This document shows positions 43,523 through 50,582 of a DNA stretch of 64,000 nucleotides, one piece after another. The notes beneath the pieces were generated by a model. The model was not told the DNA's origin. It searched no databases and saw nothing but the letters and a program-made list of their open reading frames with translations. The position numbers and the translations under genes are program-made. Every line of letters starts with the position of its first letter. Within the stretch, counting starts at the first letter, position 1. The stretch is from Spirochaetia bacterium. Lineage in GTDB: Bacteria; Spirochaetota; Spirochaetia; SZUA-6; Bin103. The stretch is from assembly GCA_965208575.1 (NCBI GenBank), contig CBDBOV010000002.1, positions 640,001 to 704,000 of the forward strand, given 5' to 3'.

Positions 43523-44359
43523 TCAGTCCTTGATGCGGACCATGATGCGGTGGCGGATCCGGTCGCGCTTCACCTCGAAGGCGTCCTGCCGCGAAGCGAT
43601 CACCTTGACCAGCTTGGAGGAGCCGTAGGTGCGCGGGTCGAACGCCGGATCGAGCTTCTTGAGGTTATTCGCGATCTTGCGCAGGTCCACCCACGCCGAC
43701 TCCTGGTCCACCATCTCGTGCGCCTCGGTCACGATGGAGACCAGGTCGGCGTCCTCGAACCCGTTGCTGTCGCTCGCTGCCGCCGTTTCGGCGCTGCCTG
43801 CCCCGTTGCCGGAACCGTCGGCGCTGCCCGCCCCGGCGGCGGACCCGGCGCCATCGCCGCTGCGGACGTCCCGGCGCCGGGAACGCCGCCGCCGGCCGTC
43901 GCTCTCGTAGCTCTTCATGATGTTCTCGACGTAGCGGAACTCGTTGCAGGCGTTCACGAACGGCTTCGGCGTGTGGTGCTTGCCGATCCCGATCACCTCC
44001 ATCCCGGCCTCGCGCAACCGGATCGCCAGTTTCGTGTAGTCGCTGTCGCTCGACACGATGATGAATCCGCCGACGTGGTTGCTGTACAGGATGTCCATCG
44101 CGTCGATGATCATCGCCGAGTCGGTAGCGTTCTTGCCCACCGTGTTGCTGAACTGCTGCACCGGCTGGATGGCGTGCACCGGCAGTTTCTTCTTCCAGGA
44201 CTCGAGCTGCGTGGTGGTCCAGTCGCCGTAGATGCGGCGGATGGTCACCACGCCGAATTTCACGACTTCCTTCATGACGTGTTCGATTTGCGATGCCTGC
44301 GCGTTGTCGCCGTCGATCAGGACGGCCAGACGCCGTTCGGCGGTTGTGCTGGTACTCAT
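43523..44359 (-). CDS. NYN domain protein with C-terminal OST-HTH/LOTUS domain
   Basis: LAVLIDGDN, RRIYGDW, KNATDSAMIIDAMD, SSDSDY; FDPRTYGSSKL. Confidence 0.9.
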   Translation of the reverse strand: MSTSTTAERRLAVLIDGDNAQASQIEHVMKEVVKFGVVTIRRIYGDWTTTQLESWKKKLPVHAIQPVQQFSNTVGKNATDSAMIIDAMDILYSNHVGGFIIVSSDSDYTKLAIRLREAGMEVIGIGKHHTPKPFVNACNEFRYVENIMKSYESDGRRRRSRRRDVRSGDGAGSAAGAGSADGSGNGAGSAETAAASDSNGFEDADLVSIVTEAHEMVDQESAWVDLRKIANNLKKLDPAFDPRTYGSSKLVKVIASRQDAFEVKRDRIRHRIMVRIKD

Positions 44360-45066
44360 GTGTTCCTCTTGTTGGTTGAGATTCGCGCCCTCTCGTGGGG
44401 CGCGGCGTTGCGCCGGTCCGCATCGGAGCGGGCGGTTGATGGGGAGGGCCCGGCCGGCGCGCCGGGGTGCGATGCCGGGCGGTTCCCGGCTGCTGCGGCA
44501 AGTTCGACGAAGCGGAAGCAATCGCGCAAGTGGTCGTTCACCAGACCCACCGCTTGCAGGTGCGAATATACGATCGTCGGGCCGACGAAACGAAATCCGC
44601 GCGCCTTGAGGTCGCGGCTCACGCGTTGCGACAACCCGGTCTGCGCGGGAACTTCGTCCTCGCCGCGCCAGCCGCCCACCACCGGCGCCCCGTCGACGAA
44701 GCGCCACAGATAGGCGCTGAAGCTGCCGAACTGTTCCTGGACGGCCAGAAAGGCGCGCGCATTGGCGATCGACGCGTCGATCTTGAGCCGGTTGCGCACG
44801 ATTTCCCGGTTCTGGAGCAGGGCGGCCCGTTCGGCGGCCCCGAAGCGGGCCACGCGAGTAACCGCGAAGTCGTGGTAGGCGCGGCGGTAGCCGGCGCGCT
44901 TGTGCAGAATGGTACGCCAGCTCAGGCCCGCCTGCGCCCCTTCCAGGGTCAGGAACTCGAACTGGAGGCGGTCGTCGTCCCACACCGGCGTGCCCCACTC
45001 GTCGTCATGATACGCCTGCATCAGTGCGTCGCCCGCGCACCACGGACAGCGGCTCGGCTCACCCAT
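44356..45066 (-). CDS. tag: DNA-3-methyladenine glycosylase I
   Basis: RCPW, YHDDEWG, LEGAQAGLSW, IVRNRLKI, NDHLRDCF. Confidence 0.95.
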   Translation of the reverse strand: MGEPSRCPWCAGDALMQAYHDDEWGTPVWDDDRLQFEFLTLEGAQAGLSWRTILHKRAGYRRAYHDFAVTRVARFGAAERAALLQNREIVRNRLKIDASIANARAFLAVQEQFGSFSAYLWRFVDGAPVVGGWRGEDEVPAQTGLSQRVSRDLKARGFRFVGPTIVYSHLQAVGLVNDHLRDCFRFVELAAAAGNRPASHPGAPAGPSPSTARSDADRRNAAPHERARISTNKRNT

Positions 45067-45145
45067 CAGGCGCCTCCGCGGCCGCCGCGGTCGCGGCCGA
45101 CCGGCGCATGCGGCGGGCGCCGGGGACAGCGGCTCGGCGCGCCGG

Positions 45146-45919
45146 TCACGATCCGGTCTCCCGGCCGCCGCGGTTGCGGTTGATCACCTCGATGCGCACC
45201 GCGCCACCGGCGCGGTCGATGAACTTCGCCGCCGCGGCCACCCGGTTGTCGCGGTCGAGCAGGTCCCACAGCTCCGCCACCGCCCGGCGCGGGTCCGCGG
45301 CTATCGGCAGCGGGAACGGCTCGCCTGCGAACGGCGGCAGCGGTGCGCCGTCCCCCTCGTAGGTGGTGATGCAGTAGCCCCAGCCGGGGCGCATGCCGCG
45401 GTAGCTGAAGTGCTGGTGGCTGGTGCGCGGCGGCGCGCCGCCGGCCGTCTTCACGATCGCCAGCTCGCAGCACCGCACGCCGCCCGAGCCGCCCACGGTC
45501 AGCGCGCCGGCGATGCGCGCCGTGTAGTGGGGGGCGTCCGGTTCCACGTCGCGGCGCGCGAACGCGGCGCTGAACGACTCGCCGCCGGCCAGGCCGGCGG
45601 CGATCGTGTCGGTCTGGTCGCCGTTGCCCACCACGTGCGTGACGCGCCCGTCGCCGTGCCGCACGGCGCACAGCGCACGGTACAGGAGCAGGTTCGGGTC
45701 GCCGCGCTGCACGCCCGCCGCGGCGTCGGCAACCACCACCCGCACGCTGCCGTCCGGCTCGCGCACCAGGCGCCGGTTGCGGCTGCCCGCGCTGCGCCCC
45801 ATGGTCCAGAAGAGTTGCACGCCGGCCGCGCCGTCGGCCGTGCAGCCGACCACCAGCCCGCGTCCGGGATAGCTGGTGCGCCGCAGCCAGGCGCGGTCCT
45901 TGGATACCGGCCCTAGCAT
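45146..45919 (-). CDS. IMP cyclohydrolase-like protein (PurO-like Ntn fold)
   Basis: YPGRGLVVG, MGRS..SRNR, VGNGDQTD, EPDAPHYTARI, ITTYEGDG. Confidence 0.8.
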   Translation of the reverse strand: MLGPVSKDRAWLRRTSYPGRGLVVGCTADGAAGVQLFWTMGRSAGSRNRRLVREPDGSVRVVVADAAAGVQRGDPNLLLYRALCAVRHGDGRVTHVVGNGDQTDTIAAGLAGGESFSAAFARRDVEPDAPHYTARIAGALTVGGSGGVRCCELAIVKTAGGAPPRTSHQHFSYRGMRPGWGYCITTYEGDGAPLPPFAGEPFPLPIAADPRRAVAELWDLLDRDNRVAAAAKFIDRAGGAVRIEVINRNRGGRETGS

Positions 45920-45981
45920 GGCTCGCCACCCGGCGCGGAACCGTCTTTACAGCCGATTCGGCGCGCGTCTACGATCCTTCC

Positions 45982-47439
45982 GTGGCGCGCGGCGGGACCT
46001 TCGAGGCGGCGGTTGAACGACTGATGGGGCTGACCGATCTGCGCCGGACCGCGCCGCCGGGCGAGCGCAACCGCTACCGCGCGCAGCGCATGCGCGCCCT
46101 GCTGCGCCAACTGCACGACCCTCACCTGGCGGTGCCCACGATCCACGTCGCCGGCACCAACGGCAAGGGCTCCACCGCTGCCATGCTCGCCGCCATGCTG
46201 CACGGCGCCGGACTGCGCGTCGGTCTGTTCACTTCTCCCCACCTGCACTCGGTGGTCGAGCGCATCCGCATCGGGCCGGATCCGGTCTCCCGCGAGCAGT
46301 TCGCCGGCCTGTTCGCGCGCGTCTGGCCGGCGGCGCAGGCGGTCGCGCGCGACCCCGCGTTGCCCGGCGAGCGCGGCGCCGTGACCACGCTGGAGGTGCT
46401 GACGGCCATGGCGTTCCACTTGTTCCGCGAAACGGGAGTGGCATACCAGGTGGTGGAGGCGTTCGTCGGCGGACGCCATGATATCACCAATATCGTGCAA
46501 CCCGTGCTGTCGGTCATTACCAATATCAGCCGCGATCACGTGCCCGCCCTCGGTACCACCCTGCGCGAGATCGCGCACGCCAAGGCTGGCATCATCAAGC
46601 CGGGGGTCCCGGTCGTCGTCGCCCCGCAGCGCCCTGCCGTGCAGGCCGTGCTCGCGCGCGAGGCAACCACCCTCGGGTCACCGCTGACGGCGGTTGCACG
46701 CCCCGCGCAGCCAACGCAAGCCCCCGCCCTGGAGAACTCCCATCAGGACCTGTGCTGGCGCGGCCGCCACGGCGAGTACCGGGTCGCGCTGCCATTGCGC
46801 GGCATCGCGCAGCGCGAGAACGCTGCCGTCGCCATCACGGCGGCGGAGCGGCTCATTGACCTGGGCGCTCCACTCTCCACCGACGCGATGTGCCGCGGTC
46901 TGGGCGGCGTCACCTGGCCGGGCCGGCTCGAGCTGGTATGCCGCGGCCCGCTCCCGGTGCTGGTCGACGGCGCCCATTGCGCTCGCGCGATGGATTGCCT
47001 GGTCGCCGAACTGCGCCGGCTGTGGACCGGTACGGGCGAACGCTCCGCAACGACGGCGGCCCTGGAAGCGAGTGCACGGGAGTCGTCTGCCGGGAGCGGC
47101 ACTCGGACCGGCAGGTCGGTGACGGCGCTGGTAGGCGCCCAGCGCGGACACCAGGCCGTCGCCACGCTCCGCCGCCTGCACCCACTTGCAGATTCCGTCG
47201 TGGCCGTGCAGACGCGCCACCCGCGCTCGCTGCCCGCCGAGGAGTTGGCGGCAACCCTGCGCGCCGCCGGAATTCCGGCCCGTGCCGGAGCCCATTCGGT
47301 GGGCGCCACGGTGCGCCGGCTCATGGCCACCGCCCGCGCGCACACCCTCCTGCTCGCAACCGGCTCGTTGTCGGTTGCGGCCGAGGTTCGCCAGGAACTG
47401 CTAACCGGGATACGGGCGGACCACTACCCGGGAACGTGA
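45982..47439 (+). CDS. folC: folylpolyglutamate synthase / dihydrofolate synthase
   Basis: IHVAGTNGKGST, FTSPHL, DH...LG, KAGIIK, WPGRLE, VDGAH, TGSL. Confidence 0.92.
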   Translation: MARGGTFEAAVERLMGLTDLRRTAPPGERNRYRAQRMRALLRQLHDPHLAVPTIHVAGTNGKGSTAAMLAAMLHGAGLRVGLFTSPHLHSVVERIRIGPDPVSREQFAGLFARVWPAAQAVARDPALPGERGAVTTLEVLTAMAFHLFRETGVAYQVVEAFVGGRHDITNIVQPVLSVITNISRDHVPALGTTLREIAHAKAGIIKPGVPVVVAPQRPAVQAVLAREATTLGSPLTAVARPAQPTQAPALENSHQDLCWRGRHGEYRVALPLRGIAQRENAAVAITAAERLIDLGAPLSTDAMCRGLGGVTWPGRLELVCRGPLPVLVDGAHCARAMDCLVAELRRLWTGTGERSATTAALEASARESSAGSGTRTGRSVTALVGAQRGHQAVATLRRLHPLADSVVAVQTRHPRSLPAEELAATLRAAGIPARAGAHSVGATVRRLMATARAHTLLLATGSLSVAAEVRQELLTGIRADHYPGT

Positions 47440-47475
47440 AGGAAGCGTACGTCGTGTGGGCGGATCAAGTCGCGG

Positions 47476-47658
47476 TCAGGTGACGTCGGTGCCGCGGACG
47501 GTCTTGCGCTTGGCAGCGCGCGCGCTCTCCATCGCTTCGTCGCATACCGCGCGCACCTTGTCCGACAGCGCTTCGGCGACCGACGCGGCTGTGTTCATAC
47601 CGCCCTTGTCCTTGATGTAGTTCTTGACCTTGGAAGTAACGATCAGAATGTCAGCCAT
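47476..47658 (-). CDS. bacterial histone-fold protein (Bd0055/HLp-like, short alpha3)
   Basis: 60 aa MADILIVTSKVKNYIKDKGGMNT...RKTVRGTD with the histone L2 RxTxxxxD motif; AGGAGG RBS at 47668-47673. Confidence 0.88.
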   Translation of the reverse strand: MADILIVTSKVKNYIKDKGGMNTAASVAEALSDKVRAVCDEAMESARAAKRKTVRGTDVT

Positions 47659-47788
47659 TGAACCAGGCCTCCTGTGTCAAGTGTGGCGTCCGTCACCCGC
47701 AACGGCGGGCGCGGCCGCCGGCGGCACTATACAGGATAGCTCGGCCCGCGTCAGCAGGCGGCCGGATATTGGGGACATCGGCGGGGGT

Positions 47789-48610
47789 TTACCTCTCTTG
47801 CAGTGGGTGCCCGCAGTGCCGGCAGTACCCGGCGTCGGGTTGATGACCCGATCGTCCGCACGCCTGGCAGTGGCGCCGGTCGCGTACGCGAAACGTCTGC
47901 GACACTACCTCCGCGGTGACCAGGCCGGTCGGGACCGCGATGATCCCATAGCCCATCACCATGATGATCGCGGCCAGGACTTGCCCGAGCCCGGTACGGG
48001 GCGTCAAATCGCCATACCCGACCGTGGTGAGGGTCACGATGGTCCAGTACATGCTGCGCGGGATGCTGGTAAAGCCGTGCTCTTCCCCCTCGATGACGTA
48101 GATCAGCGAGCCGAGAATCACCGCCACGATAAGCACCGCGAACAGGAACACGGTGATCTTGCGGCGGCTGGCGCGCAGCGCGGCCAGGATCACCACGGCT
48201 TCCTTCATGTAGGGCACCAGCTTCAGGACGCGGAACACGCGCAGGACGCGCAGCAGGCGCAGGACCGCCAGGTAGTGCGTGCCCGGCAGCAGCAGGGCGA
48301 CGAACGCCGGCAGCACCGCCAGCAGGTCGATGATTCCGAAGAAGCTGCGCGCATAGTGCAGCGGGCGGCGAACGGTCACCAGCCGCAGGAAGTACTCGAC
48401 CATGAACAGCACGGTAAAGCACCACTCGGCCACGCGCAGCCCGGGGCCGAGCAGCGAATTCACCGGGCGTGAACTCTCCAGCATCACCACCGCGACGCTG
48501 GCGATGATGGTGGCGATGATCGCGATGTCGAAGCCCTTGCCGGCGCGCGAGTCGGAAAGAAAGATGACGCTGCGCAGTTGCACGCGCCAGCGAGCGGTCG
48601 GGCGTCTCAC
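47789..48610 (-). CDS. voltage-gated potassium channel (ion transporter)
   Basis: S4 RLLRVLRVFRVLK, filter TTVGYGD, C-terminal CxxC...CxxC ribbon. Confidence 0.93.
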   Translation of the reverse strand: MRRPTARWRVQLRSVIFLSDSRAGKGFDIAIIATIIASVAVVMLESSRPVNSLLGPGLRVAEWCFTVLFMVEYFLRLVTVRRPLHYARSFFGIIDLLAVLPAFVALLLPGTHYLAVLRLLRVLRVFRVLKLVPYMKEAVVILAALRASRRKITVFLFAVLIVAVILGSLIYVIEGEEHGFTSIPRSMYWTIVTLTTVGYGDLTPRTGLGQVLAAIIMVMGYGIIAVPTGLVTAEVVSQTFRVRDRRHCQACGRSGHQPDAGYCRHCGHPLQER

Positions 48611-48655
48611 GTCCAGCGCGGCCTCCGCCCGACCGGTGCCGCGGCCATCCGGGAT

Positions 48656-48743
48656 GCCTGTTCCGAAGGAGCCTGCTGGCGGGCGATGCTTGGGAATCCG
48701 TGTTCGTCGCCTGCCATGTCACGCAGTGACCGGACAGACTCAT
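48656..48743 (-). repeat. dispersed 88-bp intergenic element, copy B
   Basis: Reverse complement aligns without gaps to 39772-39859. Confidence 0.85.
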
Positions 48744-48777
48744 CGCTCGAGTGCAGCCGGTGCGCCGCCACGGGGTG

Positions 48778-50241
48778 CTACGCGGTGGCCGGCTGCGCGG
48801 TTGCCGGTTCCAGCAGCCGTTCCTCGATCTGCCCGCCGAGCACGCGGATCTTGGCGAGCACGGACTGGTAGCCGCGCTCAATGTTGCCGACCTGGGTGAG
48901 CGTGCTCTCCCCGTCCGCCACCAGGGCGGCCAGCAGGTAGGCGAACCCGGCGCGCAGATCGGGCACCTCGAGCTCAGCCGCAACCAGCGGGGTGGGACCG
49001 GAAATCACCGCGCTGTGGTAGCAGCCGCGCCCGCGGAACCGGCACGCGGCGCTGCCCAGACACGCGGTGCTCAGGTCCACCGCGGCGCCCATCTCGCCGA
49101 GCGCGTCGGCATACCCGAGCCGCCGCTCGTAGACGGTCTCGTGGACGATCGACACGCCGTCCGCCTGGGTGAGCAGCACCACCAGGGGCGGCTGCCAGTC
49201 GGTCATGAATCCGGGGTGCGGCGCCGTTTCCACCGTTACCGGGCGGAGGCGGCGCGGGCCGCGGAACCGGATGCCGGCGGCGTCCGCGTCGCAGGTTCCG
49301 CCCACGCTGCGCAGCACGGCCAGGAATGAGCGCAGGTGGGCGGGTTCTGCACCGCGTACGAACAGGTCACCGCGGGTCGCGACCGCTGCCGCCGCGTAGG
49401 AGGCCGCCTCCAGGCGATCGCCGATGATCCGGTGCCGGGCCCCGTGCAGGGACGCCACGCCGTCGATTACCCAGGTGCGCCGGCCCGCGTGCTCGATGCG
49501 CGCCCCCATGGCACGCAGCAGGCCGACCAGATTGCCGATCTCCGGCTCGATGGCGGCGTTGCGCAGCATCGTCCGCCCCATCGCCCCGGCGGCCGCGACC
49601 AGGACCTGCTCGGTGGCGCCGACACTCGGGTAGGCGAGCCGTATGTCGGCACCACGCAACACGTCTCCGCGAAACCGGGTAATGACCCCGTCGCGCTCGA
49701 TGTCGACGCCCAGGAGGCGCAACGCGTGCAGGTGAAAGTCGATGGGGCGGGCCCCGATGGCGTCGCCCCCGATGGCGGCGATCTGCGCGCGACCGGTGCG
49801 ATGCAGCAGCGCCGCGATGAACAGCATGCAGGAGCGGTGTTCGGGGCTCACGTCGGCCGGTATGCGCCAGCCGTTGACGGTGGAGGGGTCGACTTCCAGC
49901 GTGGACTCGTCGAGCCACCGCCAGCGCACCCCGAGAGCGGCGCAGATGCGCAGGGTCAGTTGCACCTCGCCGATGCGCGGCACGTTCTCCAGCACACTCG
50001 GCTCCGGCGCCAGCAGCGCGGCGATAATCATCTTCGGCGCCGCGTTCTTGGCTCCGGCGACCGCCAGTTCGCCGTGCAGCGGCTTGCCCCCGCTGACCCG
50101 GTAGGCGCGTTCGGCGCCGGCGGTCAGCGGATCGGGCGCCGGGACGATGGCGTCCTGCACGGTGCGGCGGATGCCGGCGCCCGATTCGGTATCGGACGAG
50201 TCAGTGGAATCGGTGTCAGTATGCACGAGGCCCCCAGCCAC
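48778..50241 (-). CDS. murA: UDP-N-acetylglucosamine 1-carboxyvinyltransferase (Asp-type active site)
   Basis: GAKNA, GGDAIGARPIDFH, SVGATE, NAAIEPEI, PGFMTDWQ, DLRAG, IERGY. True start may be up to about 130 bp downstream. Confidence 0.93.
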   Translation of the reverse strand: MAGGLVHTDTDSTDSSDTESGAGIRRTVQDAIVPAPDPLTAGAERAYRVSGGKPLHGELAVAGAKNAAPKMIIAALLAPEPSVLENVPRIGEVQLTLRICAALGVRWRWLDESTLEVDPSTVNGWRIPADVSPEHRSCMLFIAALLHRTGRAQIAAIGGDAIGARPIDFHLHALRLLGVDIERDGVITRFRGDVLRGADIRLAYPSVGATEQVLVAAAGAMGRTMLRNAAIEPEIGNLVGLLRAMGARIEHAGRRTWVIDGVASLHGARHRIIGDRLEAASYAAAAVATRGDLFVRGAEPAHLRSFLAVLRSVGGTCDADAAGIRFRGPRRLRPVTVETAPHPGFMTDWQPPLVVLLTQADGVSIVHETVYERRLGYADALGEMGAAVDLSTACLGSAACRFRGRGCYHSAVISGPTPLVAAELEVPDLRAGFAYLLAALVADGESTLTQVGNIERGYQSVLAKIRVLGGQIEERLLEPATAQPATA

Positions 50242-50330
50242 AGAGAGTTATTCTCAATGTTCGGCTGCGATGGCGCCGCAGCCAAGCTGCGATGACGCCG
50301 CGGGCCCACCTGGCGGACGTGGCGGGAACG

Positions 50331-50582
50331 TCAGGAACCGCGCAGACCGTAGCGGCGGCGAAATTTCTCGATGCGGCCCGCGCTGTCGACCAGCGTCTGC
50401 TTGCCGGTATAGAACGGGTGCGAGGCGCTGGAAATCTCGATGTTGATCAGCGGGTACTCCTTGCCGTCCTGCCAGGTAATGGTTTCCTTGGACGACTGGG
50501 TGGAACGGCTCAGGAACTCGAAGTCGGAAGAGGTGTCCTTGAACACCACGAAGTTGTACTTGGGATGAATCTCTTGCTGCAT
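50331..50582 (-). CDS. rpmE2: 50S ribosomal protein L31 type B
   Basis: MQQEIHPKY...[14 protein letters not shown]...GRIEKF; no Cys (Zn-independent form). Confidence 0.93.

Follow-up and report, generated by a model that had tools for sequence, protein, structure and literature searches.

Is a 60-codon open reading frame in GC-rich, spirochaete-like DNA a gene at all, is its product a histone as the original prediction had it, and, if so, which of the bacterial histone designs does it follow? The frame occupies 47476..47658 on the minus strand of the window (the whole stretch of 64,000 nucleotides that was analysed), with a TGA stop after its 60 codons, and the protein that it specifies, MADILIVTSKVKNYIKDKGGMNTAASVAEALSDKVRAVCDEAMESARAAKRKTVRGTDVT, is identical letter for letter to the 60-aa translation on which that prediction was built. 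With 11 lysines and arginines against 8 aspartates and glutamates, a pI of 9.3 and a mass of 6.4 kDa, the product is mildly basic. Its annotation as a histone gene draws on the ORF listing and the sequence, on a match to Pfam family PF00808, on a match to the Bdellovibrio histone HBb (Bd0055), on an AlphaFold2 (AF2) model and on dN/dS. Since the open frame around it extends to just 66 codons, the ATG at 47658 is the sole sensible start. Nine nt 5′ of that ATG the sequence reads AGGAGG (47668..47673, minus strand), a Shine-Dalgarno sequence, and both it and the TATAGT hexamer further upstream are present where they had been reported.

A frame as short as this, in a window whose 70% GC gives rise to many overlapping spurious ORFs, could be thought a product of chance and no gene. 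That it is so strains belief, and several features refute it. The ORF is conserved in all 23 of the sampled genomes of the family, the window's own genome left out. For comparisons of dN/dS and of upstream motifs, 11 loci of the genus were used, the window's own included; dN/dS is about 0.1 among them (median 0.095, maximum 0.222; NG86, 55 pairs), and AGGAG(G) stands 10–15 nt 5′ of the start in 11 out of 11. The matches to Pfam and to chains of solved structures in the PDB, and the confidently predicted fold, point the same way, with the PDB match, the family-wide conservation and the dN/dS ratio being what disposes of the chance reading. In one of the loci (L012) the histone is 73% identical, where the neighboring Mur-ligase-family (‘FolC’) gene reaches 42% and the neighboring channel gene 61%: the histone gene is better conserved than its neighbors. 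The ORF is a genuine gene under strong purifying selection, and it is a single-copy gene, being the sole histone-fold match found in a genome-wide search.

Is the product a histone? PF00808 (CBFD_NFYB_HMF) is matched at 24.5 bits, above its gathering score of 21.4, the match covering residues 26–59 alone, while the 22.6 bits given by the NCBIfam model ‘archaea_histone’ fall under its cut-off of 50. The most informative relatives are those with solved structures. A phmmer search of PDB chains has as its best match 8fvx/8cmp (Bd0055/HBb) with an E-value of 1.3e-12 and 50.3 bits, gapless over residues 1–59, followed by 9qt0 (HLp of Leptospira perolatii) at 3.6e-9 and 39.6 bits; weaker matches are those to the archaeal face-to-face (FtF) histone HTkC (9f2c, 0.0034), to HMfB (0.11) and to NF-YB chains (0.13–0.16). 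The resemblance to Bd0055 and to the Leptospira histones that the original prediction had pointed out was thus correct, as the two are the closest solved relatives, and its reading of a histone fold is borne out by the Pfam score above cut-off together with a short alpha2 and an alpha3 of one turn. Two other kinds of histone-fold protein were considered and set aside. One is the pseudodimeric DUF1931 histone; the protein has a single fold of 60 aa without a match to PF09123, a family that has no match anywhere in the genome at E ≤ 1. The other is a subunit of the NF-YB/HAP3 type, rejected on the single histone-fold gene in the genome, the weakness of the NF-YB matches and the truncation of alpha3.

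For structure prediction a diverse alignment (A2) of 52 singlet relatives, 45–88% identical, served as the input. The AF2 model has a mean pLDDT of 89.2 and comprises helices at 8–19 and 25–48 (24 residues) and one turn at 56–58; as modeled, the fold is an alpha3-truncated histone fold. When the model was compared with the PDB by Foldseek, HBb came first, with TMq 0.90–0.94 and an rmsd of 0.7–1.4 Å (9ezz_B 0.94 and 1.4 Å; 8fvx 0.92), ahead of HTkC (0.85), HLp (0.83) and HMfB (0.76), and the top matches are all alpha3-truncated histones. Prediction with two copies of the chain gave an ipSAE of 0.90 in each of three runs, where the highest-scoring of 3 controls gave 0.00; among calibration structures, 20 of 30 solved homodimers attained the mark, as did 1 of 23 single chains. 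From run to run at least 98% of the contacts coincide, the partner pLDDT is 94, and the predicted contacts are those of L1 (21–24) with L2 (53–56) and of residue 35 with its counterpart 35 at the crossing of the alpha2 helices. An antiparallel handshake homodimer is what is predicted. As HBb dimers have already been solved, the dimer score may be model memory, so that it displays likeness and is no proof of binding.

The residues allow the comparison to be made finer. An RKTxxxD motif is present as R51-K52-T53-V54...D58, with the R51-D58 clamp, and R51, T53 and D58 are invariant in A2. K10 and K12 are at least 90% conserved both in A1, an alignment of 55 close relatives, and in A2, and K16 is so in A1; with an offset of one, which is our own reading, these are lysines 11, 13 and 17 of the logo published by Schwab et al. 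2024. The DNA contacts described for HBb are T8, S9, K10, K12, T23, S24, A25, K52, T53 and R57 (Hu 2024, NAR). Eight of the ten are identical here (T8, S9, K10, K12, T23, A25, K52 and T53), and the two positions that differ are S24, which is alanine, and R57, which is threonine.

HBb itself (8FVX, 8CMP, 9EZZ, 9F0E), from Bdellovibrio bacteriovorus, the type member of the ‘bacterial dimer’ category of alpha3-truncated histones, is of the same length class and 46–48% identical by Foldseek, meaning that just about half of the residues are alike. Shared with it are the S9-K10 motif, the alpha1 lysines, the RKT loop and the RD clamp, as is the lack of FtF or nucleosomal tetramer residues. In addition to the two changed DNA contacts, S24 and R57, the differences include D49 to A, and L2 is more basic (AKRKTVR) than in HBb. 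With A49 in place of D49 and T57 in place of R57, the contacts to DNA may not be the same in every detail. The host differs too, for the window comes from a 6.5 Mb uncultured genome of ~70% GC labeled Spirochaetia, and not from a predator. How HBb itself binds is disputed, the proposals being an end-on sheath on straight DNA (Hocher 2023) versus bending (Hu 2024).

HLp, a bacterial FtF histone (Leptospira perolatii; 9QT0-2), raises the alternative that the window's protein forms a stable tetramer wrapping about 60 bp of DNA. Leptospira is of the same phylum and HLp is the second-best solved relative by sequence (E 3.6e-9), with an alpha3-truncated fold at a TMq of 0.83; the two have in common the RD clamp, an SK motif where alpha1 begins, and a TVRxTD segment from L2 to alpha3 (here TVRGTD, nearer to the TVRPTD of HLp than to HBb). 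The HLp tetramer sets R49, S52 and N53 against R55, T61 and F63 (Hu 2025, Nat Commun), and on the partner side R55 and T61 have identical equivalents in R51 and T57. Of the first three residues, however, none is kept, their equivalents being S45, A48 and A49. HLp also has an N-terminal tail, which the window's protein lacks. When Bd0055 was mutated to make it tetramerise the changes were S45F, A48H and I61L (Hocher 2023); S45 and A48 of the window's protein correspond to the wild-type state of Bd0055. According to Schwab 2024 bacterial dimers are distinguished by the loss of the residues of the FtF dimer-dimer interface (R48 and N52 of the FtF logo), by RKTxxxD and by the alpha1 lysines, and a loss of exactly this kind is what is seen here.

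How general is the loss among relatives? Taking as the FtF signature an R and an N placed six and two residues ahead of the clamp arginine, R(−6)/N(−2), it is absent from the window's protein, from all 55 rows of A1 and from all 52 of A2. Of 20 parsed histones of the phylum, 5 carry it, namely three HLp-like sequences of family f27 and those of the loci L033 and L034; inspection by eye showed it also in L022, a further f27 sequence outside the parsed 20. A tree was made from 34 rows and 64 columns, a motif filter having dropped L027, L033, L034, L041 and L017–L020. In it the HLp-like clade is set off, apart from the window's genus, by a long branch of 1.47 with support of 99/100, a Bd0055-like clade (support 98/94) is likewise separate and does not include the window's genus, and the clade of that genus (support 100/98) falls among non-FtF singlets whose branching order is poorly supported, 13 of the 31 forks being open. 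An FtF histone like HLp is accordingly judged the less probable of the two designs by a wide margin of plausibility, and decidedly unlikely. The HLp tetramer-forming residues being missing, the protein is placed with the ‘bacterial dimer’ alpha3-truncated histones: by its residues it is classed as a non-FtF, dimer-type alpha3 histone, though not as a close orthologue of Bd0055. In the poorly resolved tree the histones of three loci of the sister genus g2 (L035–L037) lie apart from those of the window's genus, and some of the histone open frames in g2 reach far upstream, up to 240 codons.

HMfB and NF-YB are more distant. Common to them and to the window's protein are the histone fold, the RKT loop, the RD clamp and PF00808, but here alpha2 is shorter, alpha3 is a single turn and there is no interface for a four-helix-bundle tetramer, and the matches are weak (E 0.11–0.16, TMq 0.76 or less).

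Turning to expression, the TATAGT hexamer at 47726..47731 (minus strand) was scored by a promoter scan as a −10-like box with a −35-like CTGACG at 47749..47754 (minus strand), the spacer being 17 nt. The scan gave this one site (CTGACG-17-TATAGT), where 50 shuffles averaged 0.0. In 10 of the genus's 11 loci the orthologue is preceded by NTGACG and, after 15–20 nt, TAYRRW, while the flanking sequence diverges; the one locus without the NTGACG motif, L012, has TATAAT instead. The promoter-like motif upstream of the histone exceeds chance. With transcription predicted to begin near 47719, a putative leader of roughly 60 nt would result, and since there is no Rfam match at E ≤ 1 in 47380–47800, it contains no known leader RNA. 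Within the presumed leader, downstream of the predicted −10 box and ahead of the Shine-Dalgarno sequence, there is a perfect TTGACA (47675–47680, minus strand) which relatives keep in part (TTGGCA, TTGGAA, CTGACA); no fitting −10 box follows it. At the other end of the gene, the stop codon is 36 nt from that of the convergent Mur-ligase-family (‘folC’) gene, and a terminator scan found no intrinsic terminator-like site in 47200–48000.

Contigs from RNA libraries (X17–X20) were aligned to 45000–50500 at a likeness of at least 88%. Among those over the histone gene are X18 record 12 (47217–47683), X19 record 19 (47173–47683) and X20 record 25 (47503–47703), and they come from relatives, with 6–30 differing letters per record. 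The contigs of X17–X19 span neighboring genes too; such contigs cannot rank genes, and carried-over DNA is possible. The X18 and X19 contigs, which are from one study, both end at 47683, 25 nt 5′ of the ATG, and beyond that point the loose end of X18 has, after 8 bases, adapter-like letters. Seen in contigs of a single study, the shared end may mark a transcript 5′ end in a relative and counts as a hint at most. The high expression named in the original prediction is not supported by these contigs; it is what the strong Shine-Dalgarno sequence, the conserved promoter-like motif and the behavior of HBb and the Leptospira histones would lead one to expect.

The genome with the histone, in 6 contigs, is 95% complete. 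Its nearest named records are three metagenome-assembled genomes (MAGs) labeled ‘Spirochaetia bacterium’, at 97%, 92% and 87% identity, and after them MAGs of Myxococcota and Brocadiaceae. The host foreseen in the original prediction, spirochaete-like and of high GC, is in keeping with these neighbors and with the composition. It has one HU gene (PF00216, 90.9 bits), and in this coexistence of histone and HU it is like Bdellovibrio and unlike Leptospira, which is without HU (Hu 2025). Words from 47300–48000 were found in sequencing runs from 9 studies, with a share of 0.80 in one run labeled sponge metagenome and smaller shares in runs labeled marine or sponge metagenome; no habitat is claimed from this.

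How widely is the gene distributed? With the histone protein as the query, 29 of 41 genomes were matched, the window's own included. Leaving that genome out, the gene is in 10/10 genomes of the genus (75–98% identity) and in 13/13 of the sister genus (49–56% identity), as well as in 5 of 17 from the seven other families of the order. A scan of the phylum with A2 as the query had matches in 95 of 401 genomes, representing 20 of 153 genera; 72 of 75 genomes in the HLp-like family f27 were matched, whereas several well-sampled families had no match, as with the 50 genomes of f9, the 38 of f32 and the 17 of f26. The distribution across the phylum is patchy, as published. One 102-bit match from the scan (G159:C5:42228-42407) has an in-frame TAA, which may point to a defective copy or to faulty assembly. 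In bacteria at large histone-fold proteins are rare, Hocher 2023 giving 1.86% of 18,343 genomes.

The order of genes is kept, with ‘murA’ and a K+ channel gene preceding the histone and the convergent ‘folC’ following it (‘murA’ and ‘folC’ being our labels for matches to the EPSP-synthase and Mur-ligase families), and at every locus of the genus but L007 (10 of 11) the channel gene adjoins the histone. The HLp locus has a neighborhood of SMC and MAP genes, which is lacking here. The channel (47789–48610, minus strand), directly upstream of the histone, is of the voltage-gated type (PF00520 and PF07885) with a TVGYGD filter, and its protein ends in a CxxC...CxxC tail resembling a zinc ribbon. 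At 43523–44359 (minus strand) there is a protein combining an NYN ribonuclease (PF01936, 124.9 bits) with an OST-HTH/LOTUS domain (PF12872, 40 bits), and its gene adjoins one for a DNA-3-methyladenine glycosylase (PF03352, 44356–45066). Next is an IMP cyclohydrolase-like gene (45146–45919, minus strand; PF07826, 104 bits) that is syntenic in three Spirochaetia MAGs and belongs to a family best known from archaea (PurO).

What was known of this protein beforehand? The exact sequence is already in the NCBI and ENA collections. One member of its 90% cluster goes at NCBI by the name ‘NFYB/HAP3 family transcription factor subunit [Spirochaetaceae bacterium]’, which is misleading, while JGI calls relatives ‘histone H3/H4’. 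The expectation that pipelines would miss the gene or leave it hypothetical was thus not borne out, as NCBI and JGI both call and name close relatives. Among 1.84 billion cluster representatives scanned, 522 match at E ≤ 1e-3, of which 50 reach E ≤ 1e-10. The best-scoring representatives (P0056–P0066) are doublets of 126–149 aa with two dimer-type histone folds in tandem, and in P0059 and P0060 the doublet is preceded by a cysteine/histidine-rich N-terminal domain, ZZ-like in appearance; neither of the two proteins has a match in Pfam. Bacterial dimer histones are listed by Schwab et al. 2024 in Spirochaetota, class Spirochaetia, and the window's histone is an added member of that already catalogued dimer-type alpha3-truncated class. 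When the original prediction supposed that histone chromatin had probably not been studied in this lineage, it was right with respect to experiments but not with respect to cataloguing, given the Schwab 2024 list. A full-text literature search for histones in sponge-symbiont Spirochaetia found nothing related, and the characterised bacterial histones, as given by Hu 2025, are just HBb and HLp.

How might the protein work? DNA binding, bending versus coating, oligomeric state, abundance and role in the cell are here argued by analogy from relatives that are about 50% identical. The own, conserved promoter would provide for transcription and the strong ribosome-binding site for translation. Two chains would then form the antiparallel handshake dimer in which alpha2 crosses alpha2 and the L1 of each chain pairs with the L2 of its partner, and the dimer would bind the DNA backbone without sequence specificity. 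Contact would be made by the L1–L2 ‘beta-bridge’ (T23, A25, K52, T53) and by the start of alpha1 (T8-S9-K10, K12), with the R51-D58 clamp holding the RKT loop in place. With the residues that join HLp dimers missing, the protein most likely acts as a dimer, bending or coating DNA in the manner of HBb and not wrapping ~60 bp as a tetramer. It would do so as a nucleoid-associated protein alongside the product of the one HU gene, and with HU there too, the leading part in the nucleoid may not fall to the histone. We hold with good confidence that this is a real single-copy gene for a ‘bacterial dimer’ alpha3-truncated histone that probably acts as a DNA-binding dimer beside HU.

Could it instead be a specialised histone-fold protein with no global role in the nucleoid, a regulator of particular genes or a subunit of some other complex? 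We consider this improbable, while giving it its due: the NFYB/HAP3 name is borne by a cluster member, HU could do the general packaging, the histone may not be strongly expressed, and Schwab 2024 cautions that prokaryotic histone-fold proteins need not all organise genomes. Yet NF-YB chains score E 0.13–0.16 versus 1e-12 for HBb, and NF-YB works as a heterodimer where the genome here has one histone-fold gene and a predicted homodimer. The eight of ten HBb positions kept are contacts to the backbone and non-specific, and the strong Shine-Dalgarno sequence and conserved promoter-like motif fit an abundant protein. There is also a bolder conjecture in the opposite direction, to which we give a similarly small chance, that the histone and not HU is dominant in the chromatin of the family. 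Its surface is something of a chimera, having an HBb-like alpha2 end without tetramer residues, the HLp-like TVRxTD and the extra-basic AKRKTVR loop, and this could give a mode of DNA binding or assembly unlike that of either HBb (bending or an end-on sheath) or HLp (wrapping by a tetramer), for instance a DNA-dependent oligomer suited to GC-rich DNA.

The picture drawn by Schwab 2024 is unchanged by the window's histone. Its kind is catalogued in the lineage, and with the host uncultured the direct experimental value lies mainly in the recombinant protein. What the locus illustrates is a dimer-type histone that has become fixed across a family of large, ~70% GC Spirochaetia genomes and coexists there with HU. 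As this is the same phylum as that of the tetrameric Leptospira histone, it offers a natural comparison of two bacterial histone designs.
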